Shown here: in pieces, positions 5,955 through 23,746 of the stretch
How the letters are laid out: each line of letters begins with the position of its first letter
Numbering within the stretch: position 1 is the stretch's first letter
Notes under the pieces: generated by a model
What the model was told of the DNA's origin: nothing
Databases searched by the model: none
What the model saw: only the letters and a program-made list of their open reading frames with translations
Program-made: the position numbers and the translations under genes
From: Pyrodictium abyssi
Lineage (GTDB): Archaea; Thermoproteota; Thermoprotei_A; Sulfolobales; Pyrodictiaceae
Reading direction: 5' to 3'
NCBI RefSeq assembly: GCF_036323395.1
Contig: NZ_AP028907.1
Span: 1,230,001-1,262,000 of the forward strand
DNA length: 32,000 nucleotides

Positions 5955-7012
5955 TACGTTATGCGGCCGTAAACCGTGTCAAGTATTATCCTCGGCTCGG
6001 CGGCCCCGGCTTGCTCGACCCTGCCGAGCACGTGAGCCCGGTGGCCGTGCCGCTTGGCTAGGCTGAGTAGCTCGTCTAGGCTGTCCCTGGGCGTTGCTAC
6101 TACTAGTCCTACACCCATGTTCCATACCCGGTAGGCCTCGCTGGGCTCCACGCCGCCGGCCTCCACTAGGACCTGGAACACCCGTGGCGGCTCCGGCATC
6201 TCCATCACTGCTGCCGCGCCCTGCGGGAGGATGCGCCGCATCTTTGTGAAGGCCCCGCCGGTGATGTGGGCGGCCGCGGTAAGCAAGCCCCGGCTCCAGG
6301 CCTCGAGGAGGAACCCTGTGTAGTCCCTCACGGGCTTGGCCAGCTCCTCGGCGAGGTCCAGGCCGTCTACCACCACGTTGTAGCCGCCTAGCCGCTCCAG
6401 GGCTATCCTCCTAGCCAGGCTATAGCCGTTGGCGTGCAGCCCGTTGCTCTCGAGGCCTACCAGCACGTCGCCTGGGCGGACGCGGTTGCCCCGCCAGCCT
6501 GGCTCGCGCAGGGCGAGGACCGTGCAGACTACGTCTACTCCCTGGGCGAGGCCTGGGAGTATCGCTGTCTCCCCGCCGAGGAGCAGAGCGCCGGTTGCCT
6601 CTGCAGCCTCCCTGACGCCTTCGAGTATCTCGCGGAACACATGCTCGTCGGCCCGCGGCATGGCTATGTAGTCTACAAGGGCTACCGGGCGAGCCGCGTC
6701 GCACGCGACATCGTTCGTGTTCATCACCACGCAGTCCCAGCCGGCTACGCGCAGCCTTCCGAGCCTCTCCAGCACGAGCGTCTTGGTGCCGACACCGTCC
6801 ACGTGGAGTACTAGCTCCCGCCCGTGCAGCTCTATGGACGACGTGTATGCCTCTCGGCGGCCGGCTAGCAGCCTGGATGCCAGGCCGTGGAGCACCTCGC
6901 TAGCGTCGAGGTCCACCCCGGCGTCCCGGTAGCTCAGACCCCTCCCGGTACCACTACTGTCCCGGGGCAAGGGCGGCCCATACCCCGCGAGACGCCAGTG
7001 CCAGGCAAGCAA
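5951..7012 (-). CDS. purM: Phosphoribosylformylglycinamidine cyclo-ligase (AIR synthetase)
   Basis: LSYRDAGVDLD N-terminal block, HVDGVGTKT, LLGGETA and NGYSL blocks typical of PurM. TTG start at 7012; the in-frame TTG at 6970 would give a more canonical N-terminus. Confidence 0.9.
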   Translation of the reverse strand: MLAWHWRLAGYGPPLPRDSSGTGRGLSYRDAGVDLDASEVLHGLASRLLAGRREAYTSSIELHGRELVLHVDGVGTKTLVLERLGRLRVAGWDCVVMNTNDVACDAARPVALVDYIAMPRADEHVFREILEGVREAAEATGALLLGGETAILPGLAQGVDVVCTVLALREPGWRGNRVRPGDVLVGLESNGLHANGYSLARRIALERLGGYNVVVDGLDLAEELAKPVRDYTGFLLEAWSRGLLTAAAHITGGAFTKMRRILPQGAAAVMEMPEPPRVFQVLVEAGGVEPSEAYRVWNMGVGLVVATPRDSLDELLSLAKRHGHRAHVLGRVEQAGAAEPRIILDTVYGRITY

Positions 7013-8723: not shown

Positions 8724-9122
8724 CTAGACTGCGAGCACGCGGCGGCGATAGGACCGGTGCATCTCCTCATAAGCTTCCCGGTAGTCCAGCCACTCTACTA
8801 GAGCCCTCCACCGGTCCTCCACAAAAGCCTGGTAGTCGCCACCCACAAAGGCACCCCTCACAAGCGCCTCGTAGAGCAGCGGCAGACTAGCTCTTTCAAC
8901 CAATACCACCTCCACACGCCTACCTGTTTCAGCCTCGACAGCCTCTGCTAGCCTACCAGCCTCCACCGGAGAAAAGCCGCGGACAGCAAGATCCACGTCA
9001 CTAAGCCCACTACACCGCCCTTCAGCAGCACTACCGAACACCACGACATAGCCACCAGGCCCTAGCCCAAACCCCTCTACAACACGCCTAACCACCCGGA
9101 GAAGCTTCCTACAGCCAACCAT
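8724..9122 (-). CDS. mntA: MNT minimal nucleotidyltransferase antitoxin
   Basis: The GSx(n)DxD motif is present as VVVFGSAAEGRCSGLSDVDLAV. The track ORF runs to 9386, but its upstream 88 aa are Cys/Gly/Arg-rich and non-native. The start is therefore placed at ATG 9122 (132 aa, normal for MNT). Confidence 0.8.
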   Translation of the reverse strand: MVGCRKLLRVVRRVVEGFGLGPGGYVVVFGSAAEGRCSGLSDVDLAVRGFSPVEAGRLAEAVEAETGRRVEVVLVERASLPLLYEALVRGAFVGGDYQAFVEDRWRALVEWLDYREAYEEMHRSYRRRVLAV

Positions 9123-9611
9123 CCTGCCACCACACAGCAGGCCAGGAGCCCTACGACCACAGCGTACCAGGTGCCCTCCACAGCCTATAAGCACAAAGCC
9201 CCGAGCACCACGAATAGCCATCAGTCCTCCGAACTCCTCGCCGATACCCTTGGCGCCACGCAGCAGCCTAGACACCGCCTCCTCGCGGAGATGCAGCAGT
9301 AAGACGCCCCAGAGCCCCTCTCTCGGAGACCCGGATAAAGTGCAAGACGATATATAGAAGAACGTGCAGATAAAGCTTGCCAGCAAGGAGAGATATCTAT
9401 AAGGTAGACGGTATGTATCAATCTACACGGTGAAGATTCCTAGTGAGATTTATTTAGTCCACCTTTCCCCGATATAGACGTCTACTTAATCTTCCTACTT
9501 GCAACAATCACTACAATTATAGCAGGTAATATCCTTCACCTGCAAAAGAGGAGGCAACAGCAACTCCTTTGGATAGAAGCCATGCACAAATGAATCTCGT
9601 CATACCTGCAA

Positions 9612-10190: not shown

Positions 10191-11060
10191 TTATCCACGC
10201 TTGATGACTATGTCGCCTACCTTGACCCCTAGGTCCTCAGCCACTACCGGGCACTTGGCCATTGAGAGGAAGTATATTCCCTCCACGCTGCTTAGATCCT
10301 CGTAGTTTCCTTGCCCCTTGGCTACTGCTAGGTCGTGGCTCCTTATCCACGAGAGTACTTCTGGCGAGTAGCGCTCGGGCCATGTGCCGGGCTTCCCGCT
10401 CGAGACCCTCTTGAACTCTATGTTCGGCAGCCGGTCTAGCCCTCACGTAGAGTGCGTCCTCTATCGTGGCGTTGTTGATTATTGAGCCTTCCTTGACGAC
10501 GAAGGATATTTTCTTGAAGGGTCTTCCTCTGGCCCGGATCATCTCCTCTATTATGAGCTTGTCGAGGACTGTCTCTCCCGCGTTGTCGGCGAAGTATAGG
10601 AGGGTTTCCGCGCTCTGTACCTCCTCTCTCAGCCTGCTATAGTCGTCTATGGCTGGCTTCTGCTTCATGACCTTCTCGATAGTGGCTCTAAGGTCGTAGG
10701 TCTCGACAGCGGCGAAGTCGATTATGTTACCCGCTATAGCCGCCTTAACGGCAGCCCTTAGCGGGTCCTCGTGCCGGGCTATCATGGATTTAACCTCGTC
10801 CACTATTGCCGGGGCCTCATCGTTGCTCGCCTTCTTGAGCTCCCTATACGGGTCGAGGACGCCCGTTAGCTCCTCGACTAGCCCAGCGACCCCGAGGCCC
10901 TAACAAGCTGCGGCGGAGTGCCAGCCCATCCTATCTCGGTTAGATGGCGCATCACCCTACGTAGCACTTCCTCCTGTACCCGGGGGTCGTCCGTCGCTAG
11001 TCTAGCCGCTCTAAGCGCCTGCCTAGCTATACACACTACACAGTCCAGCCGGAGCTTCAT
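10191..11060 (-). pseudogene. DUF89 (ARMT1-like damage-control phosphatase) gene interrupted by two compensating frameshifts
   Basis: N-terminus MKLRLDCVVCIARQALRAARL...GTPPQL is in the frame of ORF 10878..11129. The middle part GLVEELTGVLDPYRELKK...AIAGNIIDFAA...LLYFADNAGETVLDKL...NNATIEDA is in ORF 10237..10803. The C-terminus, which I translated by hand, is GLDRLPNIEFKRVSSGKPG...HDLAVAKGQGNYEDLSSVEGIYFLSMAKCPVVAEDLGVKVGDIVIKRG with its stop at 10191-10193, and it returns to the N-terminal frame. Frame breaks lie near 10900 and 10445. Confidence 0.75.
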
Positions 11061-11189
11061 ACAGTACCAGCCACGGGTAGGGCGCCACACCATGCCACAA
11101 GGATATAAGCAATCCAACACCAGAGGCATAGAGCCCCGGTGAGCCTTATACCCGGTAGTAATGGCTAGGTGACTTATTGTAGATCCCTG

Positions 11190-11623
11190 CTACGGGATGA
11201 CTCTAAGCCACGGGATACGCTCAAAGTCCCGGTCAAGCGTCGCCATAGTGTCTATCCCTTGGTACTTACATGTCAATGCGATTATAGAGTCTGCGAGCAT
11301 GAGGCCGTACCTTTCGGTGACCTCGATTATCTCACGAGGCTCCGACGTTATAGGCAGGGCTATGAACAGCCCCAGTATGGGTTCTACTTCGTTTCTTATC
11401 AGCGTGATGAGCTTCTCGTCTCTTTTGCAAGCAGCTGTCTTATTCTCTTCGAGCTAAGCCCGGTGGCTAGTCTTAGATAGCCATAGATAACCTCATTCAC
11501 TACTATGGCGTTAATGTAGCCGGTAATAGCGTGGTCTTCAACCTTCTCGATAATCCTGTAGGCCCGCTGGTCCTGGCCTGCCAGGAAAGCCAAGATCACA
11601 CTAGAATCCACGAATATCCTCAT
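11190..11623 (-). pseudogene. vapC: PIN-domain VapC-type toxin with one frameshift
   Basis: N-terminus MRIFVDSSVILAFL (first catalytic Asp) is in ORF 11399..11623. The C-terminal half, translated by hand in another frame, is EKLITLIRNEVEPILGLF...YGLMLADSIIALTCKYQGIDTMATLDRDFERIPWLRVIP, with its stop at 11190-11192. The frame break lies near 11410-11440, and the span is not a multiple of 3. Confidence 0.75.
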
Positions 11624-11825
11624 TCTCTATCTCCTCAATAACCTCCAGGAACTCGCTCCTTGTCAGCTTTGGTCTATGCTTCCTCACAATACCGTAGAAC
11701 TTCTGGGCGAGGGAGCCTTCGCCGGCCTTTAGGACAATCACCACCTCCTCTCCTTCCTTCATCTCCAATGGTTCTAGTGGTTTGAGCACACCGTTCTCAT
11801 ACCTTGCTCTTATGACTCTGGGCAA
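11601..11825 (-). CDS. DUF104 (AF2212-like) antitoxin partner of the PIN gene
   Basis: 74 aa. IRARYENGVLKPLEPLEMKEGEEVVIVL is the characteristic DUF104 block. It overlaps the PIN start by 23 nt. Confidence 0.8.
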   Translation of the reverse strand: MPRVIRARYENGVLKPLEPLEMKEGEEVVIVLKAGEGSLAQKFYGIVRKHRPKLTRSEFLEVIEEIENEDIRGF

Positions 11826-12865
11826 CTCAACCCCCTCCTAAAGGTAGACGTTCTAGCCACTTAGCCTTTCCCCGCTAGAACCACCTACGCGCCACCAAAC
11901 GGTAACCATGCACGAAAACGCGCCCCAGTCCAGCGGCGCCAGACACAGGTAGGGGGCCTTTTGCCGCCCCGGCCCGGGGGCTCTATCCTGGCGCCTTCCC
12001 GTCAAGGGCTGTATGGCTGGGCTCGTACAGCGCCACCGTGTAGGTAATGGTCCCGCAGGGGCCTTCGAAGTAGCGGCGGACCACCATAGGCAGGTCGCCG
12101 CCCGGCTTTATGGGGTCGAGATGCCCGATAGACCATTCTTAGACGACATATAGTCATTACTATTTACTAGCACGACTTTTATACCTACAATCGCCATAGC
12201 CGCTATCGCTGCTAGGAGTATTACTGCACGACCACCACTACTATTACGTAGTACTCGTTCCACAACATCACCACCATATACGATGATTCTATACGTATAT
12301 ACTCAGTGAGAGTCCAAACTAACCTAGAAGCTGAAAAGCTGTTCCAGCTAGTAGATGAGCTACCCAATATTCTTCTTCATAAGATCAGATGCTAGCCGGC
12401 CCAAACACTGGCTGCTACATGTGTAGCAAGCTGCTAGCCCTTCTCTCCGACTATCTTTGCGTCCATGCGTCCCTTGGCGTATACCCAGTCTCCTACCCGG
12501 AGCTCCCTCCTCGGGTCTCCTCTTACTGATGGCCAGTTCGCTACGAGCACTATCCCGCAGTCGAACACTATCCAGTGCCTCTTCTCCGCTCTCCGCCGGG
12601 GCGTCCTCCACGATGTCAACTACCTGCCCGAGGCAGGCATAGCTCGGGGCAGCGGGTACCTTGTCACCTGCTTAATGAACTTCTCAGGGACATTAGCCCT
12701 GCCCATGTAGAAGGTCATTACTTCATCTAGAGCCTGCCCATGGCCGCGGAGACGCCGTCACGGCCGTGCCCACGGCTTGCCGAGGGAACCACTATGCATC
12801 GGGCCCGGCTGGTACAGGTGCATGGAGGGGCTAGGCGGGGGTGACAATGCAGCCCCCGGGAGGCT

Positions 12866-14236
12866 CTAGGCCTCATGTTGTGTGCTGGTTGCTGCCTTCT
12901 TTACGCAGCCTATCGCGGTCTCTGCTAGCTCTTGCGGCCCGAGTGCTTCGAGGCCTGGGGGTGGCGGTGACTCTATGCCGCCTAGGCAGGCTATGCCCAC
13001 TCTTCGGGCGCCTATGGCTTCTGCGCGCTGGAGAACGGTCTTCATGTCGCTTTGGCTGCATGGGCCGAGCTTGACCTCGTAGGCTGCTATGGCTCTGCGG
13101 CCCCCGTGGTCGAGTACCACGACGTCTACGTCGCCTTGGCCGTCTGGCAGGATTGTGTAGGCTTGTAGGCCTCCGTGGTGCTCGGCGAGTAGCTCGCCCA
13201 GCGTGAACTGTAGTTCTCTCGCGTAGAGGCTGCGGGTGGCGTCGAGGAGGAGTTCTGGATCGCGGTGTGGGTGCTCGTCTACGCCGTAGATCTCGGCCAG
13301 CCCGTAGACTATAGCTAGTAGTGGCGAGGAGTGGCGGTAGTAGACGCGGGCGCCCCGTGTGCGCCAGAGCCGGGTCTTGGCTACTAGCCCTATCTCGGAT
13401 AGCCGGTCGAGGAGCCCCGTAGCCGGGCCTGCTCCGGGGCTGGAGAGGAGGCCCCGCTGGTATAGGAGGCCTGCTAGCTTCGCGCTGCTCCATACCCCGG
13501 CTGCTAGTAGGCGGAGGGCTGCCTCGTAGAGTCTTGTTAGCCGTCTCTCCTCCTCCTCGAAGACCTCTCCTATGAGCCCCCGCGCCATTTGCGCCAACAT
13601 GTAGGCGTTGCCAGCAATGAAGCGCCAGGGCTCGCCCTCGAGCCCCGGGGCCAGTGGCAGGAGCCAGGGCTCTCGCAGCACGACGCCCCATAGCAGGGCG
13701 TGGCGAGGCCCAAGCCGGGGTAGAAGCGACGAGACCACGTCGGCGTAGCGTAGCGGGTCTACGCGGAGGGGTAGCACTAGGCCTAGTAGGGGGCTGCGGC
13801 GGTCGAATACGCGATTCGCGACCCCGAGGCTAGAGGCTACGAGGACAAGCCTGCCCTCGGGGTGGCGTGTGGCTAGTAGGTCCCAGTAGCGCTCCGGTAG
13901 CCGCTGGAACTCGTCGACAACCACTACACCGTCCTCGGCTAGCAGCTCCACAGCCCTAGACATGGCCTCCCCTATCTCGGTGACCGTAGGCTTCTTCCCG
14001 GGCTCCTCCACTACCGCTGATAGGTCGCGCGTCACAGTCACGTAGAGCCGCCATGGGAGGAGCAGGCGTGCCATGAAGCTCTTCCCGGTCTTCCTACGCC
14101 CGTAGACCAGGAGCCAGCCGCTGCGGCGCTTCAGCTCGAGGAACTCGCGCCGCCATAGTACATGTGTCTCCTCCAACGCTTCTGCCCGGTATACCCGCTG
14201 GAATATACCCGCGAGTATATACCCACCGGAATGCAC
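12866..14236 (-). CDS. Archaeal AAA+ ATPase (COG1672 / Arch_ATPase) with C-terminal DUF234 nuclease-like domain
   Basis: Walker A LLVYGRRKTGKSFM and Walker B VVVVDEFQRL. The C-terminal block GDVDVVVLD...AYEVKLG is typical of the DUF234 restriction-endonuclease-like module. Confidence 0.85.
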   Translation of the reverse strand: MHSGGYILAGIFQRVYRAEALEETHVLWRREFLELKRRSGWLLVYGRRKTGKSFMARLLLPWRLYVTVTRDLSAVVEEPGKKPTVTEIGEAMSRAVELLAEDGVVVVDEFQRLPERYWDLLATRHPEGRLVLVASSLGVANRVFDRRSPLLGLVLPLRVDPLRYADVVSSLLPRLGPRHALLWGVVLREPWLLPLAPGLEGEPWRFIAGNAYMLAQMARGLIGEVFEEEERRLTRLYEAALRLLAAGVWSSAKLAGLLYQRGLLSSPGAGPATGLLDRLSEIGLVAKTRLWRTRGARVYYRHSSPLLAIVYGLAEIYGVDEHPHRDPELLLDATRSLYARELQFTLGELLAEHHGGLQAYTILPDGQGDVDVVVLDHGGRRAIAAYEVKLGPCSQSDMKTVLQRAEAIGARRVGIACLGGIESPPPPGLEALGPQELAETAIGCVKKAATSTQHEA

Positions 14237-14528: not shown

Positions 14529-15749
14529 TTAGGTGTGGCTGCGTGGGAGTATCTTTAGCTTCTCTGCTGCCCGTCTGGCCTTGGCGCGGGCTTCCTCGGG
14601 TGTCTCGGCACGGGCTAGTACTACTGCCATGCGGCGGCCCCGGTAGGTTCTGGGCTTGCCGAACCAGCGCAGCTCTACGCCCGGCTCGGCTAGGGCCTGG
14701 TAGGCGCCGCTGAGCACGGGGTACCACTCGCCGTCGAGGTTTGTGTATACTGCTATGCTGGCTGCGGGGGTTAGGACACTGGGCCTGGGGACGGGTAGGC
14801 CTACTGCTGCGCGTACGTGGGCTTGGAACTCGCTGATGTCCTGGCTGGCTAGGGTGACTAGGCCTGTGTCGTGGGGCCTGGGCGCCACTTCGCTGAAGAG
14901 GAGCCGGCCGTCCCTAGTCTGTAGGAGCTCGACGCCGAATACCCCGACGCCGCCTAGGGCCTCTGCTACCCGTGCTGCTATCTCGCGGGCCCGGTGGAGC
15001 AGGCCCGTGGGCCTGGTGCTGGGCTGCCAGGACTCTATGTAGTGGTACTCGCCGTACCTCCAGTGCTCGACCGGCTCCATAGCGTCTGTTCTCGCCTTGT
15101 CGCCGTCGAGCCACCGGTAGGCGAGGACAGTGTACTCTGTCTCTAGCTCAACGTACTCCTCCACTATGACGCGGCGGCTCGCACCCCGGGCGTGGCTTAT
15201 CGACTCCATGTAGGCCTTCTCGACAGCCTGGCGGCTAGGCTCCGCGACCTTTACGTGGCCGTGGCCGCTACTGCTCATCTCGGGCTTGATTAGGCAGGGG
15301 TAGCCGACCTTCTCGCAGGCCTCGTAGGCCTCCTCAGGCGTCTCGGCGAAGGCATACCTTGTGGTGGGTAGGCCTAGCTCCTCGGCCGCCCAGCGCCGCA
15401 GCTCTATACGGTTCATCGCTATCCTGACTGCCCGCGCGTTGGGCACCACGTGGTAGCCCTTCTCCTCGAGCCTCTCCAGCGCCTCGGTGTTGATGGCCTC
15501 TATCTCGGGTACCACCGCTACCGGGTTCTCGCGCTCCACGATGGCCTCCACTGCGCCCGCGTCGAGCATGTCCACGACGTAGCGGCGGTGGGCTACGTGC
15601 ATCGCTGGGGCCCAGTCGTAGCGGTCGACAACGACCACCTCTAGGCCGAGCCGCTGCGCCTCTATCGCTACCTCCTTGCCTAGCTCGCCGCCGCCTAGTA
15701 GGAGCACCTTGGCTGCTCCGGGGCCCAGAGGGCTGGGTATGGAGTCCAT
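14529..15749 (-). CDS. purT: Formate-dependent phosphoribosylglycinamide formyltransferase (GAR transformylase 2)
   Basis: KVLLLGGGELGKEVAIEAQRLGLEVVVVDRY, ATP-grasp blocks and PEMSSSGHGHV. The track ORF extends to 16001, but that part overlaps purD and is Arg/Pro-rich. The start is therefore placed at ATG 15749 (MDSIPSPLGPGAAKVLLLGGG), giving 406 aa. Confidence 0.9.
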   Translation of the reverse strand: MDSIPSPLGPGAAKVLLLGGGELGKEVAIEAQRLGLEVVVVDRYDWAPAMHVAHRRYVVDMLDAGAVEAIVERENPVAVVPEIEAINTEALERLEEKGYHVVPNARAVRIAMNRIELRRWAAEELGLPTTRYAFAETPEEAYEACEKVGYPCLIKPEMSSSGHGHVKVAEPSRQAVEKAYMESISHARGASRRVIVEEYVELETEYTVLAYRWLDGDKARTDAMEPVEHWRYGEYHYIESWQPSTRPTGLLHRAREIAARVAEALGGVGVFGVELLQTRDGRLLFSEVAPRPHDTGLVTLASQDISEFQAHVRAAVGLPVPRPSVLTPAASIAVYTNLDGEWYPVLSGAYQALAEPGVELRWFGKPRTYRGRRMAVVLARAETPEEARAKARRAAEKLKILPRSHT

Positions 15750-15844: not shown

Positions 15845-17350
15845 CTAGCTGTAGTCGTGGACTATTAGGCCGCGGCCGGGTATCCAGTCGTAGATCCTGG
15901 TCTCGCCTCGGGCGCGGCGCCTCGTGTAGGCCTTCCTCACGCGCTCGGCTAGCGCCACGCGGCTCTCTATGTGGCTCCTCTGGCCTATGTCGCGGCGCCA
16001 TACGAGGGGGTGGCCGTCGAGAAGCCTCACCGCCTCCGCCGCGCGCTGGGCCCTGGCGGCTGCGTCCTCGTAGCCCTGGCTGCTCCAGCAGACTATCTCC
16101 ACGAGACGGGAGCCCGTGGAGACGAGGCCGCGGGGGCCCTGGTCTACCCCGGCGTAGAGTAGCCTGCAGCCCTGGCGCTCGACAGCGTCTCTGTCTACGG
16201 CCACCGGGTGACCCCGGGCTAGGGCCCGGTTGTTGGGGTAGCCTGCGGGTGCTAGCGCGATGTTGACCACGTAGACGTCGTTGTCTACCTCTAGCCGGTA
16301 GCCGGCTAGCCTGCCCGAGGCTGCGCGGTCCAGCAGCTCTAGGAAGTCGCTCCGCAGCATGGGGAGCAGGTTGCCGGTCTCGGGGTCGCCAAACCTGGCG
16401 TAGTACTCTATGACCGTGGGGCCCCAGAGGCTGGTGAGCATCATCTGGCCGCTAATGGTGCCGCGGTAGGGCTCCCCGGTCTCCCGCCGGAGGGCCTCCA
16501 CGGTCTTCTCGAGTACCTCGACTGTCTCCCGGTACTCGCCGAGCTCGAGGAAGGGAGGCACAACGCCGGGCCCGCTGACCGCGCCCATTCCCCCAGTCTC
16601 GGGGCCGAGGTCCCAGCTGAAGAGGTGGGGGTGGTCCTGTACCACTGGCAGCGGCACCAGCGTGGAGCCGTCAGTGACCGCCATCACGGTGTACTCTACG
16701 CCCTCAACCCTCTCCTCGACTATAACCGAGTAGTCTATGTCGCTGTACTTCTCCCGCACCTCGCGGGCCAGCTTCTCCGCGTAGCTCCCCGCCGCCCCGC
16801 GCACCGCTGCCCCAAGGTGCTCCATGGGCTCCGCGAAGACGCGTACGCCGCGGCCGCCAGCCTGCCGGGCAGGCTTGACCACCACGTCGCCCGCTGCGCG
16901 GGCGTACTCCGAGGCCTCCTCGGGGTCCGTGAAGACCTGGTAGCGTAGCCGCCCCGGGATACGGTAGCGCCACATGAGCCCGCGGGCATAGGCCTTGTCC
17001 TTCTCTATCCGGGCCTGTGCCCTGCCGGGGCCGTAGACTGTGAAGCCCTTCTCCCGGAGCGCGTCCGCGACGCCCGCGAAGAGGGGCTCCTCGGGGCCTA
17101 TGACCACGAGGTCTGGGCTCCAGTCCTCGGCCGCCTGGAGGGCGTCGCCGGGGCTAGTGGGCTTGCCGGGGTAGAACCTTCCCCCGGTGTTCTCGGCGGC
17201 TTCTACTAGGCCTGGGTTCCTCTTGTCGCTTAGCACCGCTATGCGGGGCTCCATGCTGCTGCCCGCTATGAGCAGTGCGAGGGCGTGTTCGCGGCCGCCG
17301 CTGCCCAGTAGGAGCACCTTCACTCCCGGCTCACCTCCTCCAGCATGCAC
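15845..17350 (-). CDS. purD: Phosphoribosylamine-glycine ligase (GAR synthetase)
   Basis: VKVLLLGSGGREHALA N-terminal block and ATP-grasp core. GTG at 17350 opens the frame. GTG 17323 overlaps the TGA stop of the upstream purF paralogue as GTGA and is the more likely coupled start. Confidence 0.9.
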   Translation of the reverse strand: MHAGGGEPGVKVLLLGSGGREHALALLIAGSSMEPRIAVLSDKRNPGLVEAAENTGGRFYPGKPTSPGDALQAAEDWSPDLVVIGPEEPLFAGVADALREKGFTVYGPGRAQARIEKDKAYARGLMWRYRIPGRLRYQVFTDPEEASEYARAAGDVVVKPARQAGGRGVRVFAEPMEHLGAAVRGAAGSYAEKLAREVREKYSDIDYSVIVEERVEGVEYTVMAVTDGSTLVPLPVVQDHPHLFSWDLGPETGGMGAVSGPGVVPPFLELGEYRETVEVLEKTVEALRRETGEPYRGTISGQMMLTSLWGPTVIEYYARFGDPETGNLLPMLRSDFLELLDRAASGRLAGYRLEVDNDVYVVNIALAPAGYPNNRALARGHPVAVDRDAVERQGCRLLYAGVDQGPRGLVSTGSRLVEIVCWSSQGYEDAAARAQRAAEAVRLLDGHPLVWRRDIGQRSHIESRVALAERVRKAYTRRRARGETRIYDWIPGRGLIVHDYS

Positions 17351-18543
17351 GCCGTGCAGGGGTCTATGCCGTGGCTCTTGAGGTAGGAGACGGCCTCGCC
17401 TAGGGGGAGCCAGGCTAGGCTATCCACGTCGAGGACGCGCTCTATCGCATCGTCGCTTAGCTGGCGGGCTATCAGGCTGCCTGGCTCTAGGAGCTGGACG
17501 CGGTGGGGGCACGTGGCTACTATCTTGGGGCTCGAGACTGCTACGTGCAGCTCGCGGGGGGCCTGGCTACGCCACAGCCTGTGGATGAAGGTCTTCAGCG
17601 TGAGCCCGGTAACCACGCTATCGTCGACTACCGCTACCCGTCTCCCCTCGAAGACGCCGGGCACGGGGTTGAACTTGAGGCTGAGCATCATCAGCCTCTC
17701 CTCCAGCGACGCCTGGGCTATGGCGGTTCTCACACGGCCTATCGTGGAGACTAGCGCCAGCTCCATGGGGGCCTGCTTCTCCTCGGCGTAGCCTAGGGCG
17801 TAGGGGAGCGCGGTCTCCGGTACCCCTACCACGACGTCTACCTCCACGGGGTGGCTGCGGGCGAGCCGCCGGCCCATCTCCCGGCGGAACAGGTACACGT
17901 TCACGCCGTCCACGAGGCTGTCTGGGCGCGCCAGGTAGATGTACTCGAAGAGCGAGGTGGCGCGGCGGCCCCTGCCGGCGCTGTAGGTGTCGAGCGTGTA
18001 GCGGTCCCCGTAGACAGCCTCGCCCGGCTCGAGGTCGCGGCGGGGCTCCCCGCCCATCAGGGTTATGGGCGCTGTCTCCGTGGCGGCGTAGACTGCGTCG
18101 AACCCGTAGCCGCCTAGGCTGAGGGGCCGTACCCCGCTCCTCCCCCGGTACAGCACGTAGCCGCCGCTGCCTGTCAGCGCCGCTACCGTGCAGCCGTCGA
18201 ACCTGGTGCTAGAGGCCAGCGCCTCGGCTGCCTCGCGGGGGCTCCCAGCGGCCTCCACCAGCCTCAGTGCCTCCGCTGCGCTGCATGCACCGTCCACGGC
18301 CACGGCTGCGCTGCGTGAGGCGGCGAGGCTCCCAGTGGGCTCCACTGCCGCTAGTACCGCGCTGCCCTCGGGTAGGCTCCAGCCGTTGCTCCACGGGTTG
18401 AGCCTTCCCTGCTCTAGCCCGTCGCCGCGTAGAACCGCGTAGGAGACCCTTGGCCCGCGGTGCCGCAGCCCCATGACGCCGTAGCGGGCGTAGAGGCCGG
18501 CTGGCTGGTCTGGCTCGTAGAAGTAGACTAGCAGTACGCCCAT
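17320..18543 (-). CDS. Amidophosphoribosyltransferase paralogue with a degenerate glutaminase domain
   Basis: Collinear with PurF. It retains FEYIYLARPDS and the PRPP loop RRVAVVDDSVVTGLTLK. It begins MGVLLVYF, so there is no Cys after Met, and it lacks the NGN oxyanion block. Start placed at ATG 18543, 10 nt after the purF stop; the longer track ORF would overlap purF by 98 nt. Confidence 0.8.
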   Translation of the reverse strand: MGVLLVYFYEPDQPAGLYARYGVMGLRHRGPRVSYAVLRGDGLEQGRLNPWSNGWSLPEGSAVLAAVEPTGSLAASRSAAVAVDGACSAAEALRLVEAAGSPREAAEALASSTRFDGCTVAALTGSGGYVLYRGRSGVRPLSLGGYGFDAVYAATETAPITLMGGEPRRDLEPGEAVYGDRYTLDTYSAGRGRRATSLFEYIYLARPDSLVDGVNVYLFRREMGRRLARSHPVEVDVVVGVPETALPYALGYAEEKQAPMELALVSTIGRVRTAIAQASLEERLMMLSLKFNPVPGVFEGRRVAVVDDSVVTGLTLKTFIHRLWRSQAPRELHVAVSSPKIVATCPHRVQLLEPGSLIARQLSDDAIERVLDVDSLAWLPLGEAVSYLKSHGIDPCTACMLEEVSRE

Positions 18544-18553
18544 GCCGTATGGC

Positions 18554-19909
18554 TCACCTCCTGCCCTCTGTGAACACCTTCTCGAGACGGGGTACGTCCA
18601 GGGGGAGGGGGTAGGCTCCGCCGAAGCATCCGAGGCAGAGGCGGCGGCCAACAGCCTCCTCTAGGTCCCTCAGGCCGAGGTACAGTATGCTGTCAACGCC
18701 CAGGGCCCTGGCGACCTCGTCTACGCTCCTACCGTGGGCTACTAGCTCGCCGCGGCTTGGCATGTCTACGCCGAGGAAGCAGGGCATGACCACGGGCGGC
18801 GAGGCGACGCGTAGATGCACCTCGCGGGCCCCTGAGCGGCGGAGGATGTGGGCTAGCCACCTGCTGGTGGCGCCGCGGACTACGCTGTCGTCGACGAGGA
18901 TTATTCTGCGGCCCCAGGTCGTCGAGCGTATCGGGTTGAACTTGCGCTTGAGCCTCCCGTTCCTCTCGCCTGGGGGCGCTATGAAGGCGCGGCCAGCGTA
19001 CCGGTTGCGGTATAGGACCTCGGTGTAGGGGAGTCCCCGCTCCATGGCGTAGCCTATGGCCGCGCTCCGGCCGCTATCCGGGACCGGCGCCACCAGGTCG
19101 GCCTCCACTGTGTCGCGGCGGGCGAGCCGCCGGCCCATCTCGAGCCTGGCCGCGTGGGCCTCGACGCCCTCGAAGACGCTGTCGGGCCTGAGGAAGTATA
19201 CGTACTCGAACGCGCATGGCCGGGGCTCGTGCCCGGGGGCTAGCCCGGTCTCGACGCAGTCCTTGGGGGAGCCGTTGCAGTGGAGCATCCTCCCCGCGCC
19301 TACCTCTCTCCAGGGGAGCCCCATCGAGTCTAGCGCGGCCGTCTCGCTGGCCACGGCGGCGTAGCCGTCGCCCACCGCGTAGGCGAGAGGCCTGACCCCG
19401 TAGGGGTCCCGGGCGGCTGCTAGCTCGCCGCGGGCCGTGACTGCTACGAGGCTGTAGGCCCCGCGTAGGAGGCGCGCTGCCTCCCTGAGGGCGTCGGCGA
19501 GGCTCCCCTGCTCCAGGTAGAGGGCCTCCACGAGGTCTGCTACGAGCTGGGCATCCCAGGTGTAGCGGCGGCCTAGCAGCTCCCGGCCCAGCTCCCGGTA
19601 GTTGACAATGTTCCCGTTATAGGCTATGTAGACTAGCTTCTTGCTGCCAGCCACCGGCTGGTAGTGCTCGCCGCCGTACCCGCCGCTCGTGCTGTACCTC
19701 ACATGCCCAATAGCAGCCCAGGCGCCGGAGGCGGCCGTGGGGAGGCGTATAGCCTCCTGCACGAGCCCGGGGCCGCCGACGAGCCTTACGCCGCCGCCGG
19801 CTAGGAACGCTATCCCCGCGGCCTCCTGGCCCCGGTGCTGGAGCTCCAAGAGCAGCTCGTAGACCGCCGAGGCCGCGTCCCTGCCCAGCCAAGCTGCTAC
19901 GCCGCACAC
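18554..19909 (-). CDS. purF: Amidophosphoribosyltransferase (glutamine PRPP amidotransferase)
   Basis: Ntn-type MCGVAAW N-terminus, LQHRGQEAAGIA, HVRYSTSG and YNGNIVNY. PRPP loop RRIILVDDSVVRGATS. Fe-S Cys positions RPCAFEYVYF, MPCFLGVDMP and CLGCF. Confidence 0.92.
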   Translation of the reverse strand: MCGVAAWLGRDAASAVYELLLELQHRGQEAAGIAFLAGGGVRLVGGPGLVQEAIRLPTAASGAWAAIGHVRYSTSGGYGGEHYQPVAGSKKLVYIAYNGNIVNYRELGRELLGRRYTWDAQLVADLVEALYLEQGSLADALREAARLLRGAYSLVAVTARGELAAARDPYGVRPLAYAVGDGYAAVASETAALDSMGLPWREVGAGRMLHCNGSPKDCVETGLAPGHEPRPCAFEYVYFLRPDSVFEGVEAHAARLEMGRRLARRDTVEADLVAPVPDSGRSAAIGYAMERGLPYTEVLYRNRYAGRAFIAPPGERNGRLKRKFNPIRSTTWGRRIILVDDSVVRGATSRWLAHILRRSGAREVHLRVASPPVVMPCFLGVDMPSRGELVAHGRSVDEVARALGVDSILYLGLRDLEEAVGRRLCLGCFGGAYPLPLDVPRLEKVFTEGRR

Positions 19910-19919
19910 GGTGCCAGCT

Positions 19920-22103
19920 TCACCCCTCTCTCACCAGCTTCTCCAGAGTAGTGGCGTAGGCCTCCGAGAGCCCGTCCAGGGGGACCCTGGCCAGGGTTCT
20001 CCTGCCCGAGGCCAGCTCCACGTAGCTGCCGCCTGGCTCGCCTACGACGCGGGCCCACACGCCTGCCTCCTCTGCGCGGCGCAGAACCTCGCCAACGCTG
20101 TCGCGGGGCACCTCGAGGATGTAGCGGCCCGGTGTCTCCGAGAACCCCGCCTCGAGCGGGCTCCGGCACGCTGGGCAGAGGGCAGCGAGGTCGAGCCTTG
20201 CGCCGACGCCACCCGCCACGGCCATCCGGGCCACGGCTGCCGCTGCGCCGCCCAGCCCGACGGAGTGCGACGCGAGCACAAGCTCGTCCTCGATGAGCCT
20301 CCTCACCAGCTTGGCGGCTGCTGCCTCCTCCCTTGGCCGGGGCTCGGGCGGGAGCCCCGCTGGCTCGCCTAGGAGGAGCTCGGCCGCCTCGCTAGCGCCT
20401 AGCTCTGGCCGCGTCTCCCCCACAGCTACGAGTAGACCTTCCCCGGTCAGGGCTAGGCCCGTTGCCCGGGTGACGTCGCTTATCCTGCCGACGACGAGCA
20501 CTGAGGCAACCGGGTCGACCATATGGCCGTGCTCGTCCTCGTTGTAGAGGCTCACGTTGCCCCCGATGAAGGGTATGCCGAGGCCGCGGGCCATCCAGGC
20601 TAGGCCCTCTACTATGCGCTTGAAGTACCAGAACTGCCGCGGCTTCTCCGGGTTACCAGCGTTAATGTTGTCGAGCGCTGCCAGGGGCTCACCGCCCACA
20701 GCTGCTACGTGCCGGTAGGCCTCGGCTAGGCTGAGCGCAGCGCCCCGGAACGGGTCCTGCCGGGTGTAGCGCGGGTTCCCGGCGAGCGCTGCCACCACTC
20801 CGCGGCTCGTACCGTCGCGGAGCCATAGCACAGCCGCGTCGGCATAGCCCGGCGGCGCGGCTGTGCGGCCCTGGACGCCCCAGTCGTACTGCTCGTAGAC
20901 CCAGGCCTTCCCCGCCACCCGGGGCGAGGAGACCACGCGCTCTAGCAGCCAGCCCAGCTCCTCCTCGGCTAGGCTGAGGCCCGGCAGCTCACGGGGGGCC
21001 GGCGGGGGCTCCGCCTTCCTCTCCACGGGCGGCGCCGACGCGGCGAGCCCGACGGGGAGGTCTACCACTACTCTGCCTCGGTAGACGGCGCGGAGCCTCC
21101 CCGTGTCGTCGAAGTAGCCTATGACGCTCGCCTCGACACCGTAGCGGTCTAGCAGCCGGAGCAGCTCGCCCAGCTTACCCCTCTGCGGCACCAGTAGCAT
21201 GCGCTCCTGGCTCTCGGAGACCAGTATCTCCGCCGGCTCCATGTCTGGCTCGCGGAGGTGGACACGGTCGAGGTGCACCACGGCGCCGACGCCGCTGGAT
21301 GCAGCGGTCTCGGAGACCGCCGTGGCTAGGCCCCCGCCTCCTAGGTCCTTCACGTGGCGGAGTAGCTTCCTCTCGAAGGCCTCCGTGAGTGCGTCTATTA
21401 GCAGCTTCTCGAGGAACGGGTTCCCGACCTGGACGGCCGCTATGTCCTCCTCGCGGCTGCCCAGGGGGCGGCTAGCAAAGCTGCTCCCGAGCATACCGTC
21501 CCTACCGGTGGAGTTGCCCGCGAGGACCATCACGTCCCCGGGCTCTACGCGGCCTGGGAGCAGGTCCCCGGGCCGCGTGACCCCTATGCACGCCACGTTG
21601 ACCAGGGGCTGTCTCTCGTAGCTAGCGTGGAACCATGTCTCGCCCGCCACCGTGGGGACTCCTATCCTGTTCCCGTAGTCGCTTATACCCCGCACTATGC
21701 CCTTGGCGAGCCACCGGGAGACTGGTGTGCGGAGGCTCCCCAGGTAGAGGGCGTCGAGCAGCGCTATCGGCTGGGCGCCTAGGCTCAGCACGTCGCGGAC
21801 AATACCCCCTACCCCGGTCGCAGCCCCGTTGTAGGGGTCCACAGCCGAGGGATGGTTGTGGCTCTCTATACGGGCGACCACCGCCACGTCGTCGAACAGC
21901 TTTACCGCGCCCGCGTCGCGGCCAGGGCCCACGAGCACCCATGGCGCCTCAGTGGGCAGCATTCTTAGGAGCCGCCGGGTGCTCTTGTAGCTGCAGTGCT
22001 CGCTCCACGTGGCCTCGAAGAGGGCCAGCTCTTCCCGTGTCGGCTCGCGGCCTAGCCGGCGGCGTATCTCGCTCAGCTCGCTCTCGGAGAGCGGCATCAC
22101 CAT
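19920..22103 (-). CDS. purL: Phosphoribosylformylglycinamidine synthase subunit II
   Basis: 727 aa. EATWSEHCSYKST, ESHNHPSAVDPYNGAATGVGG and duplicated PurM-like domains. Overlaps the purQ stop by 7 nt. Confidence 0.95.
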   Translation of the reverse strand: MVMPLSESELSEIRRRLGREPTREELALFEATWSEHCSYKSTRRLLRMLPTEAPWVLVGPGRDAGAVKLFDDVAVVARIESHNHPSAVDPYNGAATGVGGIVRDVLSLGAQPIALLDALYLGSLRTPVSRWLAKGIVRGISDYGNRIGVPTVAGETWFHASYERQPLVNVACIGVTRPGDLLPGRVEPGDVMVLAGNSTGRDGMLGSSFASRPLGSREEDIAAVQVGNPFLEKLLIDALTEAFERKLLRHVKDLGGGGLATAVSETAASSGVGAVVHLDRVHLREPDMEPAEILVSESQERMLLVPQRGKLGELLRLLDRYGVEASVIGYFDDTGRLRAVYRGRVVVDLPVGLAASAPPVERKAEPPPAPRELPGLSLAEEELGWLLERVVSSPRVAGKAWVYEQYDWGVQGRTAAPPGYADAAVLWLRDGTSRGVVAALAGNPRYTRQDPFRGAALSLAEAYRHVAAVGGEPLAALDNINAGNPEKPRQFWYFKRIVEGLAWMARGLGIPFIGGNVSLYNEDEHGHMVDPVASVLVVGRISDVTRATGLALTGEGLLVAVGETRPELGASEAAELLLGEPAGLPPEPRPREEAAAAKLVRRLIEDELVLASHSVGLGGAAAAVARMAVAGGVGARLDLAALCPACRSPLEAGFSETPGRYILEVPRDSVGEVLRRAEEAGVWARVVGEPGGSYVELASGRRTLARVPLDGLSEAYATTLEKLVREG

Positions 22104-22774
22104 CCCCTGCGCAGCGCTTCGCCTATCGACGTGAAGAACGGGTGGCCCCCGGGCCTGCGGCCGCGGGGGACCTGGAGTGGGCTCGCCGCTCGCTCCGGGT
22201 GCGGCATTAGGCCGAGAACGGCTCCGTCCTCGGAGGCCAGGCCGGCGACGTCTGCGACGCTGCCGTTAGGGTTCTCGAGGTACTCTAGCCAGGGCCTGGA
22301 CCGGAGTAGCTCCCCGGGCGCGGGGTGGTAGAAGCGCCCCTCAGCATGGGCCACCGGCATGTCTAGCACAGCGCCGGGCTCCACGTGGAGTAGCCAGGGG
22401 CCGCGCGGGCTGTGCACCCGGACCCGGAGCCACCTGGCCACGAAGCGGCCGCCCTCGTTGGGTAGGAGGGCGCCGGGGAGTACGCCCGCCTCCACGAGGA
22501 CCTGGAACCCGTTGCATATCCCGAGGATAGGGGCGCCGTTCTCGGCCGCCTCGCGGAGCTGCCTGGCCGCGGGGCTCCAGGAGGCTAGGAGCCCAGCGCG
22601 CCCGTAGTCCCCGTAGCTGAAGCCTCCCGGCACAACTGTAGCGTCCCAGTCCCTCCAGCGGTACTCGGTGTGCCACACTACGCGCGCCTCTACGCCGGCC
22701 ACCTCGCGCAGCATGTAGGCTGTCTCCTGGTCGCAGTTAGTGCCGGGGAACCGGAGCACAGCGACTCTAGGCAA
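22097..22774 (-). CDS. purQ: Phosphoribosylformylglycinamidine synthase subunit I (glutaminase)
   Basis: VAVLRFPGTNCDQE, catalytic Cys in GICNGFQVL, and MPHPER. Confidence 0.95.
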   Translation of the reverse strand: MPRVAVLRFPGTNCDQETAYMLREVAGVEARVVWHTEYRWRDWDATVVPGGFSYGDYGRAGLLASWSPAARQLREAAENGAPILGICNGFQVLVEAGVLPGALLPNEGGRFVARWLRVRVHSPRGPWLLHVEPGAVLDMPVAHAEGRFYHPAPGELLRSRPWLEYLENPNGSVADVAGLASEDGAVLGLMPHPERAASPLQVPRGRRPGGHPFFTSIGEALRRGW

Positions 22775-23030
22775 GAGTGATCACCAGGAGCGTGTGGACC
22801 GCGGGGTTGAAGAGCCGGGTCTCGCGGGCCATTTCCTCTACGAGCCTCTCCGCCTCCTCCCTCGACTCAGCCTCGACCTCTACTATGAACGCCTTCCCGG
22901 CGCGGATCCCCTGGACCCAGGTGTAGCCTAGCCTTCTCAGCTCGTCTGCCAGCGTCTCGCCCTCAGGGTCCCGGGCCGACGGCTTGTAGGCTACTATTGC
23001 CAGCACACGGTGCCGGGTCAACCGGTGCAC
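22767..23030 (-). CDS. purS: Phosphoribosylformylglycinamidine synthase subunit PurS
   Basis: 87 aa, with DPEGETLADELRRLGY...IRAGKAFIVEVEA matching the PurS pattern. It sits between purC and purQ with 13-nt and 8-nt overlaps. Confidence 0.85.
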   Translation of the reverse strand: MHRLTRHRVLAIVAYKPSARDPEGETLADELRRLGYTWVQGIRAGKAFIVEVEAESREEAERLVEEMARETRLFNPAVHTLLVITLA

Positions 23031-23746
23031 CTCCTCTCGGGCTCGCCGGCTAGACGGGCTAGCTCCCTGTAGGCCTCCAGCAGGGCCTCGACGCCGCCAC
23101 CGCGCCTGTAGACCTCCTTGTCCAGGTGCCTACCCCCGCTGTCAACCAGCCTCATCGTGTCGCCTGTGACCTCGTCGACCACCACGAAGCCCGTGGCAGA
23201 CCGAGCCACCTCGATCTTAAGGTCTACTAGCCGGAGGCCCCGCCGGCGCCAGAACATCTCGAGGACGCTGCTTACCCGGAGGGCTAGGCTCTGGATGTCC
23301 CAGAGCTCCCGCCACGATAGGAGCCCGGCCTCGACAGCGTCCTCGGGGAGAACGAGCGGGTCGCCCCTCGCGTCGTCCTTGAGGTGCAGCTCCACCAGGG
23401 GCCGGAAGAGCCTCTCCATGGGCTTTAGGAGCGGCATCCTGCGAAGGAGCGAGCCATAGGCATAGTTCCTCACTATCACCTCGAGGGGGATGACCTCGTG
23501 CCTCCTAGCGAGGAGCCTGGAGCCGCCCATGTAGCACACATAGTGTGTCGGCACACCGTGCTCCTCTAGCAGCTCGAACATCCGGGCAGAGAGCCTGGCT
23601 GCTAGCTCGCCTTTGCCCGGCGCCGTGTCGCGGCGCTTGCCGTCGAACGCTGTGACCTCGTCCTTGAACTCGAGTACCACCAGGCCATTGCCCGCGTCGA
23701 GGACCCGCTTCGCCTTGCCCTCGTAGAGTAGCTCACCCGTGCGCAG
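23018..23746 (-). CDS. purC: SAICAR synthetase; the 5' end is uncertain because there is no canonical start codon
   Basis: The track ORF starts at GTG 23680 (MVLEFKDEVTAFDGKRRD). The same frame is open upstream and encodes the conserved PurC N-terminus LRTGELLYEGKAKRVLDAGNGL. The only start-like codon there is CTG at 23746, which would give a canonical length of 242 aa. Confidence 0.85.
   Translation of the reverse strand: MRTGELLYEGKAKRVLDAGNGLVVLEFKDEVTAFDGKRRDTAPGKGELAARLSARMFELLEEHGVPTHYVCYMGGSRLLARRHEVIPLEVIVRNYAYGSLLRRMPLLKPMERLFRPLVELHLKDDARGDPLVLPEDAVEAGLLSWRELWDIQSLALRVSSVLEMFWRRRGLRLVDLKIEVARSATGFVVVDEVTGDTMRLVDSGGRHLDKEVYRRGGGVEALLEAYRELARLAGEPERRCTG

Follow-up and report, generated by a model that had tools for sequence, protein, structure and literature searches.

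The second of two tandem purF-like genes in a 32,000-nucleotide stretch of Pyrodictium abyssi DNA (assembly GCF_036323395.1, contig NZ_AP028907.1, positions 1,230,001 to 1,262,000; the whole stretch is called the window below) belongs, as judged from its sequence, to the PurF' proteins, ancient PurF paralogues of thermophilic Thermoproteota without the N-terminal catalytic cysteine (Cys1). The explanation that we prefer, although tentatively, is that PurF' would work with PurF and PurD as a partner whose glutaminase is dead and whose phosphoribosylpyrophosphate (PRPP) site is functional, making phosphoribosylamine (PRA) from free ammonia. The phenomenon is already known under this name. Brown, Hoopes, White & Sarisky 2011 (Biol Direct 6:63) found that each purine-synthesising crenarchaeon has two PurF-like genes, named the Cys-less copy PurF', located it near purF and other pur genes and in a separate cluster of their tree, and proposed it to be an ammonia-dependent phosphoribosylpyrophosphate aminotransferase, pending experiment. 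The window adds a new member with peculiarities of its sub-clade and no new phenomenon: PurF length, the missing N-terminal Cys, separate clustering and a place among pur genes are shared with the proteins of that study (examples are SSO0633, Saci_1612, Msed_1982, DKAM_0524 and Cmaq_0666). No essential difference was seen, and the sub-clade of the window alone has a deleted Cys1 codon, Ser at the first cluster ligand and the pair Cys87/Cys118. No biochemical characterisation of PurF' later than 2011 was found in the open-access literature.

Coordinates are whole-window positions; both genes, like the entire pur operon, are on the minus strand. The two genes and the parts of PurF' discussed below are:

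18554-19909, minus strand: purF, canonical glutamine PRPP amidotransferase of the B. subtilis type, 451 aa, GTG start, four Fe-S cysteines
17320-18543 including the TGA stop, minus strand: purF', Cys1-less PurF paralogue, 407 aa, ATG start, N-terminus MGVLLVYF
17974-18543, minus strand: degenerate N-terminal nucleophile (Ntn, glutaminase-like) domain of PurF', residues 1 to about 190, delimited by key-residue mapping
17323-17973, minus strand: type I phosphoribosyltransferase (PRTase) domain of PurF', residues about 191-407; phmmer match to 1gph over residues 134-383, E = 3e-41
17953-17955, minus strand: Ser197, aligned with the first 4Fe-4S cysteine (B. subtilis Cys236)
17809-17826, minus strand: pyrophosphate (PPi) loop GVPETA, residues 240-245, with E/T in 66-67 of 70 PurF' members
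17665-17760, minus strand: PRTase flexible loop, residues about 262-293, with Arg272 (E. coli Arg332) and Lys290 (E. coli Lys349) kept
17599-17631, minus strand: PRPP loop VVDDSVVTGLT, residues 305-315
17347-17511, minus strand: span with the three kept cluster cysteines Cys345, Cys396 and Cys399, aligned with B. subtilis Cys382, Cys437 and Cys440

The upstream gene encodes a canonical enzyme, as the initial annotation of this DNA had proposed. It starts GTG-TGC, giving an M-C-G-V N-terminus, and its product carries AYNGNIVNY, PCAFEYVYFLRPDS, LVDDSVVRGAT, PPVVMPCF and CLGCF together with the four Fe-S cysteines. Against TIGR01134 (cut-off 350) the protein scored 392 bits over residues 2-434, and the phmmer match to B. 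subtilis PurF (1gph/1ao0) had an E value of 1e-89. All 28 key residues are canonical or conservatively replaced (K326 = R, T373 = A).

The PurF' product is 38% identical to the window's PurF over 282 aa (BLASTP, E = 1e-33) and carries TSLFEYIYLARPDS and VVDDSVVTGLT. Its TIGR01134 score of 153 bits lies below the cut-off of 350 and covers profile positions 147-427 only, PF00156 gives 25.2 bits, slightly below the gathering score of 26.3, and none of the Pfam GATase models matches the N-domain. Residues were mapped in an alignment of 223 PurF-like sequences using E. coli and B. subtilis PurF numbering. Cys1 is missing and the initiator Met sits in its slot; Arg73, Tyr74 and Thr76 are replaced by Glu, Pro and Gly, Asn101 by Asp, while Gly102 is kept and Asp127 falls in a deletion. 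According to the paired alignment the Ntn domain is about 40 residues shorter than that of PurF, with a truncated glutamine loop and a deletion of the segment after the NGN position. The HRG motif (R29, G30) is present in all 70 members of the family. Since the Cys nucleophile, the oxyanion Asn and the glutamine-binding residues have been lost from the Ntn domain, PurF' is predicted to be unable to hydrolyse glutamine.

In the PRTase domain Tyr258, the E-T PPi loop, Asp366, Asp367, Ser368, Gly372 and Thr374 are kept, and the canonical PRPP-loop Arg371 is Thr. The flexible loop retains the equivalents of Arg332 and Lys349 and has lost Lys326, Arg328 and Phe334. By this mapping every residue known to bind PRPP (DDS..G.T, E-T, Tyr258, Arg332, Lys349) is retained. 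In PurF enzymes the PRPP and PPi loops bind PRPP and mutation of Tyr258 also severely impairs activity, mutation of the equivalent PRPP-loop D/D/S in AtGPRAT2 markedly lowers activity, and the channel and closed active site form only on PRPP binding and flexible-loop closure (PMC7056826). Three of the four ligands of the putative cluster are Cys (C345, C396, C399) and the first is Ser197. The initial annotation had described the second copy as collinear, with the PRPP loop kept and with neither Cys1 nor the NGN block; residue mapping, profile scores and predicted fold agree with this, and the scoring of catalytic and cluster residues against PurF that it had suggested gave loss of the glutaminase residues and retention of those of the PRPP site.

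An AlphaFold2 model of PurF', built on a 22-sequence alignment, reached a mean local confidence (pLDDT) of 92.5 and a predicted template modelling score (pTM) of 0.91, with the pLDDT dropping to 73-85 in the flexible loop. Foldseek aligned the model with whole-length PurF structures (1ao0, 6lbp, 1gph, 8w7d, 1ecb) at template modelling (TM) scores of 0.79-0.86 over 450-480 aligned columns, while GlmS, AsnB and beta-lactam synthetase were distant matches to the Ntn domain only. The model thus predicts that the two-domain Ntn plus type I PRTase fold of PurF is retained. A phmmer search of PDB sequences returned canonical PurF entries only and no solved PurF' structure. With the canonical B. subtilis-type enzyme (1GPH/1AO0) PurF' shares this fold (TM 0.79-0.82), the PRPP and PPi loops, the FEYxYxARPDS motif, the flexible-loop Arg and Lys and three of four cluster cysteines. 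It differs by the absence of Cys1, Arg73, Tyr74, Thr76, Asn101 and Asp127, by the shorter Ntn domain and by replacement of Lys326, Arg328, Phe334 and Arg371.

The same features were followed through the family. About 50 proteins of 400-430 aa that have the PRTase Pfam domain only, all ranked ahead of canonical PurF, came out of a word-indexed homology search; their named sources were Stetteria, Pyrodictiaceae, Pyrolobus, Desulfurococcus, Zestosphaera, Ca. Aramenus and Acidilobaceae. Searching 1.8 billion representatives with a profile gave about 20 further PurF' clusters, including Sulfurisphaera, Sulfodiicoccus, Caldivirga, Aigarchaeota and a metagenome-assembled genome (MAG) labelled Thermococci. 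Intact PurF' open reading frames (ORFs) are present in 70 clusters from Sulfolobales, Desulfurococcales, Thermoproteales and Aigarchaeota/Nitrososphaeria. In a neighbour-joining tree of the 223 PurF-like sequences, the 70 Cys1-less sequences form one monophyletic clade with no Cys-bearing sequence inside, and none of them has Cys at position 1. The window protein clusters with those of Desulfurococcus (P0044), Sulfurisphaera (P0092), Sulfodiicoccus (P0100) and Caldivirga type (P0102/P0256); its closest named relatives, with 60-63% identity, are from Stetteria hydrogenophila and Pyrodictiaceae.

Conservation was counted for the 70 PurF' and 123 canonical sequences in the same alignment (E. coli numbering). 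The canonical residue is kept by all PurF' members at Arg26, Gly27 and Thr374, by 69 of 70 at Tyr258, Arg332, Lys349, Asp366 and Gly372, and by 68 at Asp367 and Ser368. Fe-S ligands 2-4 are each Cys in 70/70. Asn101, found in 120/123 canonical sequences, is Asn in no PurF' member (Asp in 55). Lys326, Arg328, Phe334 and Arg371 are nearly invariant among the canonical sequences and are kept in 2, 0, 0 and 12 of the 70 PurF' sequences, respectively, with Ala (49) or Met (12) in most members at position 334. The first Fe-S ligand is Cys in 41/70 and Ser in 29/70, and all 29 belong to the sub-clade of the window. Replacement of the first cluster cysteine, as reported by the initial annotation, therefore holds for the window protein and does not hold as a trait of the family.

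This sub-clade has further characters of its own. The Cys1 codon is deleted (M-G-L-L), as opposed to being substituted (M-A/S/T/P-G) in other PurF' proteins. In members of the Pyrodictiaceae/Pyrolobus type, Cys87 (18283-18285) is conserved in 38/39 and Cys118 (18190-18192) in 39/39, replacing the Leu/Ile and Tyr/Phe of all other PurF' and canonical PurF proteins. These two residues of the degenerate glutaminase domain might be joined in a stabilising disulfide or create a new metal site. The mean cross-genome identity of the N-domain over seven genomes is 0.30 for PurF' and 0.37 for PurF, which indicates purifying selection on the dead domain; in the C-domain the corresponding means are 42% and 47%.

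PurF' appears to be translated from the operon of PurF, with its stop overlapping the start of purD. Matches to NCBIfam profiles gave the order purC-purS-purQ-purL-purF-purF'-purD-purT in the window, the further elements of which are:

23018-23680, minus strand: purC, NCBIfam match
22767-23030, minus strand: purS, NCBIfam match
22097-22774, minus strand: purQ, NCBIfam match
19920-22103, minus strand: purL, NCBIfam match
18554-18561, minus strand: Shine-Dalgarno-like motif GGAGGTGA, preceding the purF' ATG (18543) by 10 nt and overlapping the purF stop
17331-17338, minus strand: second GGAGGTGA motif, preceding the purD GTG by 7 nt and located within the 3' end of purF'
15845-17323, minus strand: purD, glycinamide ribonucleotide (GAR) synthetase, TIGR00877 328 bits (cut-off 288), residue 1 at profile position 1
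14529-15749, minus strand: purT, formate-dependent GAR transformylase, NF006766 502 bits, downstream of purD, likely start MDSIPS at 15749

Between the purF stop (TGA) and the purF' ATG lie 10 nt, and the purF' TGA and purD GTG overlap as GTGA; both statements of the initial annotation were confirmed on the minus strand. The GGAGGTGA motifs before the purF' ATG and the purD GTG support these start codons and co-translation in the pur operon. This ribosome-binding motif is of crenarchaeal type and, like the G+C content of 63-69%, would agree with a crenarchaeal host. An upstream Met-Cys start had not been seen before and was not found here either, but the upstream extension does hold one Cys. 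In the window the in-frame extension runs for 36 codons to a TTG at 18651 and overlaps the 3' end of purF, and its single Cys (…VSRRCSQRAGGEPYG-MGVLL) is not in a C-G-[IV] context. The extension is just 2-12 codons long in six related loci, with Met-Cys in none; in Pyrolobus (L081) it comprises about 31 codons and one Cys, in a C-G-T context with no preceding Met. AGGTGA-type motifs were located 6-14 nt upstream of the purF' starts of Stetteria (L082), Desulfurococcus (L083), Ca. Aramenus (L084), Zestosphaera (L087) and a Nitrososphaeria MAG (L001). An alternative Met-Cys start was rejected, since the extension Cys is in the wrong context and the Shine-Dalgarno-like motif fits the ATG at 18543.

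A survey of how often purF' stands beside purF, which the initial annotation had proposed, gave purF-purF'-purD order in seven of eight complete loci, i.e. the window, L001, L082, L083, L084, the 'Thermococci' MAG (L085) and L087, with gaps or overlaps of a few nt. The pur gene order of the window is matched in L082, L083, L084 and L087. The genes purF and purF' stand 5-10 nt apart, and a Shine-Dalgarno-like motif shares nucleotides with the purF stop. At the other end, the stop codon of purF' touches or overlaps the start codon of purD in the window, L001, L082-L085, L087, a metagenomic contig (L090) and the contig of protein P0112. A scan of genome contigs with the PurF' alignment was dominated by canonical bacterial PurF, which shares FEYxYxARPDS and GVPETA, and only L001 was useful. 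In Pyrolobus fumarii (L081; CP002838, 329630-346892) the unit is broken up and purF' is nevertheless retained: it stands alone on the strand opposite to purD, about 3 kb off, with an ABC transporter operon between them, and no purF is present within this 17-kb locus.

Additional file 1 of Brown et al. lists purF' alongside canonical purF in 14/14 purine-synthesising Crenarchaeota, each once per genome. Consecutive locus tags for purF, purF' and purD are given there for four of five Sulfolobales and for Desulfurococcus, while one tag intervenes in S. solfataricus (SSO0632, SSO0633, SSO0635). According to the same file, most Thermoproteales have purF' next to purD or purM, Caldivirga has it next to purF and purM, and in Pyrobaculum calidifontis, P. 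arsenaticum and P. aerophilum it adjoins purD, not purF; in Ignicoccus the genes are scattered. No purF' is listed for Cenarchaeum, Nitrosopumilus and almost all Euryarchaeota, so that the mesophilic Thaumarchaeota have purF and lack purF' (Brown et al., Biol Direct 6:63).

The tentatively preferred explanation, an ammonia-dependent enzyme, is based on the retention of the PRTase residues in 68-70 of the 70 members while those for glutamine use and coupling are gone. The PRTase site of PurF' would still be catalytic and convert PRPP and free ammonia to PRA, and the slimmed Ntn domain would merely offer a lid surface for closure of the flexible loop. PurF' would act alongside PurF, probably bound to PurF and/or PurD, so that the thermolabile PRA is made beside GAR synthetase. 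Phe334, Lys326 and Arg328, which we take to line the channel and to mediate coupling or allosteric binding, are selectively lost, and this would fit an enzyme that is no longer coupled to the hydrolysis of glutamine. With each degree the pKa of NH4+ drops by about 0.03 units, and free NH3 is far more abundant at 80-100 °C, which could provide the rationale for a distribution limited to thermophiles. The ammonia hypothesis also draws on E. coli PurF, whose Cys1 mutants lose glutamine-dependent and keep NH3-dependent activity, as the work of Mei & Zalkin 1989 is cited in PMC3261824. These mutants are an engineered counterpart of the PurF' state, with the difference that they keep an otherwise intact glutamine site and channel, whereas in PurF' the entire site is dismantled and another residue stands in place of Phe334 of the channel.

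Several observations weigh against an ammonia-dependent enzyme. Wild-type PurF is itself able to use NH3, which makes a dedicated NH3 isozyme look redundant, and the co-transcription of purF and purF' argues against differential use of nitrogen sources. Canonical PurF accompanies PurF' in 14/14 Crenarchaeota, and hyperthermophilic Euryarchaeota do without PurF' (Brown et al., Biol Direct 6:63). Two natural variants depart from the PRPP loop consensus. P0112, encoded directly upstream of purD, reads D-N-L where D-D-S is expected. P0122 (L090:679-1878, metagenomic contig SRR32459161_32927) is a full 399-aa PurF' ORF, about 37% identical to its nearest relatives, in which the PRPP loop is destroyed: VECGNTPLTT replaces VDDSxVTGxT, FEPLSLARTHS replaces FEYxYxARPDS, and the shortened flexible loop has no equivalents of Arg332 and Lys349. 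GGYGFD and the three invariant Fe-S cysteines are kept. The gene lies 7 nt after the 3' end of a canonical purF and 3 nt before purD-purT-purE. P0122 may thus represent a natural 'double-dead' PurF' and would point to a non-catalytic role. Finally, because inhibitor sites overlap the PRPP site, conservation of its residues fits a nucleotide-sensing, non-catalytic subunit as well.

The main rival reading, possible although on balance unlikely, is that PurF' is such a non-catalytic partner (pseudoenzyme), which would form a hetero-oligomer with PurF in place of the usual homotetramer, stabilise or regulate it and use its pocket as a ligand sensor. Wild-type PurF is already able to use NH3, and the dead N-domain of PurF' is under purifying selection. 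PurF' co-occurs with canonical PurF in all 14 Crenarchaeota and replaces it in no archaeal locus examined, the two genes are separated by 5-10 nt with a Shine-Dalgarno-like motif over the purF stop, and P0122 retains scaffold, GGYGFD and Fe-S cysteines without a PRPP site in an intact purF-purF'-purD-purT-purE operon. PurF enzymes are homotetramers in which the nucleotide-inhibitor A and C sites overlap the PRPP site (PMC7056826). On the other hand, PRPP-binding and catalytic residues, including Arg332 and Lys349, are kept in 68-70/70. Lys326 and Arg328, which presumably contact the nucleotide of the allosteric site in the B. subtilis structure, are lost, the opposite of the pattern for a pure nucleotide sensor. 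Moreover, purF' is apart from purF in most Thermoproteales, Ignicoccus and Pyrolobus, and P0122 is known from one metagenomic contig.

Models for a partner subunit are the trypanosomatid S-adenosylmethionine decarboxylase (AdoMetDC) prozyme and HisZ with HisG, in which impaired, conserved and co-expressed paralogues work only in complex with the active enzyme. The complex of PurF' is hypothetical, and PurF' differs from typical prozymes in keeping one full set of catalytic residues. Another parallel is provided by the beta-lactam and carbapenam synthetases (AsnB homologues, 1JGT/1M1Z/1Q15), which were among the weaker Foldseek matches to the PurF' model. Their N-domain has lost the Cys nucleophile and is kept as a structural, non-glutaminase domain beside a catalytic C-domain. 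These enzymes are, however, adenylating and not PRTases, and they act stand-alone in secondary metabolism, unlike a paralogue co-expressed with its parent enzyme.

The linkage to purD leads to a second group of non-enzymatic roles. We regard it as rather unlikely that PurF' is not primarily an enzyme and serves as a pseudoenzyme adaptor linking PurF to PurD in a dedicated PRA channel of thermophilic Thermoproteota. Hints in this direction are the purF'-purD linkage, which is stronger than that of purF and purF', the PRTase-dead P0122 (L090) and the absence of the gene in mesophilic Thaumarchaeota. The more specific version, in which the PRTase pocket would hold PRA and the protein would dock on PurD, coupling PurF to GAR synthetase so that the very unstable PRA escapes loss at 70-100 °C, seems improbable. 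It would account for the stop/start overlaps or abutments with purD listed above for the window, L001, L082-L085, L087, L090 and the P0112 contig as the tightest linkage, for the three Pyrobaculum species in which purD and not purF adjoins purF', for the Pyrolobus gene, which has purD at a distance of about 3 kb and lacks a neighbouring purF, for the limitation of PurF' to thermophiles and for the retention of PRTase-dead P0122 upstream of purD. However, the contact between PurF' and PurD is hypothetical, the pyrophosphate-contact residues (Tyr258, PPi loop, Arg332) are conserved though unneeded for PRA binding, and P0122 could not hold PRA if the pocket is the holder. Aquifex reportedly couples PurF to PurD without a PurF'-like protein, which also counts against a hand-off of PRA by PurF'. 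The partner-subunit and adaptor models are not mutually exclusive with catalysis by PurF'.

PurF' is a fifteen-year-old loose end of archaeal purine biosynthesis, the functional question having been posed already in 2011. The three roles that the initial annotation had offered, an NH3-dependent enzyme, a heteromer partner of PurF and a scaffold for PRA, are still the hypotheses to be weighed. Were PurF' to act without catalysis, as a partner of PurF or as an adaptor between PurF and PurD, prokaryotes would offer in it a clear example of a dead paralogue that organises a metabolon, here around an intermediate with a lifetime of only seconds. The comparison presented here sharpens the question through the residues kept and lost over 70 members, a natural PRTase-dead variant, a purD linkage tighter than the purF linkage and the absence from mesophilic relatives.

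That PurF' catalyses another step through its nucleotide-monophosphate pocket, for example as the missing inosine monophosphate (IMP) cyclohydrolase of Crenarchaeota, is very improbable. Crenarchaeota are without a PurH, PurJ or PurO homologue, PurF' occurs in all that synthesise purines, and nearly any enzyme with a nucleoside monophosphate site could be the missing cyclohydrolase according to Brown et al. (Biol Direct 6:63). However, the pyrophosphate-binding elements are conserved though unneeded for cyclisation of formamidoimidazole carboxamide ribonucleotide (FAICAR), and purF' is situated between the genes for steps 1 and 2 and not near purP or purB. The phyletic pattern fails as well, because the mesophilic Thaumarchaeota Nitrosopumilus and Cenarchaeum, and also Pyrococcus, lack a known cyclohydrolase and PurF' alike. 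A functionless, decaying duplicate, which the loss of one of two active sites and the failure of the GATase Pfam models on the N-domain could suggest, has a negligible probability given the intact ORF in 70 clusters, the many invariant positions, the conserved synteny and Shine-Dalgarno-like motifs and the confident fold prediction; the pseudogene or relic reading, which the initial annotation had left to be checked in relatives, was rejected on these grounds.

Cys-less PurF-like proteins are also found outside the archaeal clade. In a Clostridiales MAG (GCA_018729555.1, L089:7001-8191; P0286/P0086) a 396-aa PurF-like protein has no N-terminal Cys, a shortened Ntn domain and PRTase motifs (KNPYAGRAFL, VDDSIVRGAT) that are canonical throughout. 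It fills the purF slot (X) of a bacterial purE-purC-purL-X-purM-purN-purH-purD operon; the adjacent PurL has only 574 aa, and neither purQ nor purS is present in the locus. This organism may run both amidotransfer steps on ammonia, and the locus hints that Cys-less PurF-like proteins can serve as the first enzyme of the pathway.

A separate group of PurF-like proteins from Tissierellia/Bacillota MAGs (P0105, P0132, P0138, P0157, P0181, P0183, P0192, P0214) begins with M-S-G-[IV]-x-G, where Ser fills the slot of Cys1, has Asp for Asn101 and a fully canonical PRTase domain, and falls outside the archaeal PurF' clade. The Oribacterium protein P0166/P0272, representative of a cluster of 1282 members, was considered as Cys-less and rejected: Cys is found at position 5 with canonical spacing to HRG, and it is probably an ordinary PurF with a short (4-residue) propeptide.

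Some features of the window lie outside the genes described above. No Pfam or NCBIfam profile matches a 456-aa ORF directly downstream of purT (12866-14236, minus strand), a slot that purM, purE or purP occupies in related operons; it could be an unknown gene or an ORF that is spurious and due to high GC. The region 10800-12900 is gene-poor, with no ORF of more than 103 aa, and the block at 8-12 kb has a G+C content of 0.55, compared to 0.63-0.69 elsewhere in the window, and a strongly negative GC skew. Rfam and repeat scans of the low-GC region (8-13 kb) found no Rfam family and no tandem, direct or CRISPR-like repeat. A fragment of a damage-control phosphatase (10237-10803, minus strand) matches profile positions 89-198 of 282 only, and a protein with an MntA-like antitoxin domain is encoded at 8724-9386 (minus strand). 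Two archaeal ATPase_2 (PF01637) genes are located at 4914-5954 and 29866-30879, both on the plus strand. At 5951-7012 (minus strand), about 7.5 kb from the main pur operon, a protein of the aminoimidazole ribonucleotide (AIR) synthase type with the Pfam domains AIRS and AIRS_C is encoded, and this gene is probably purM.

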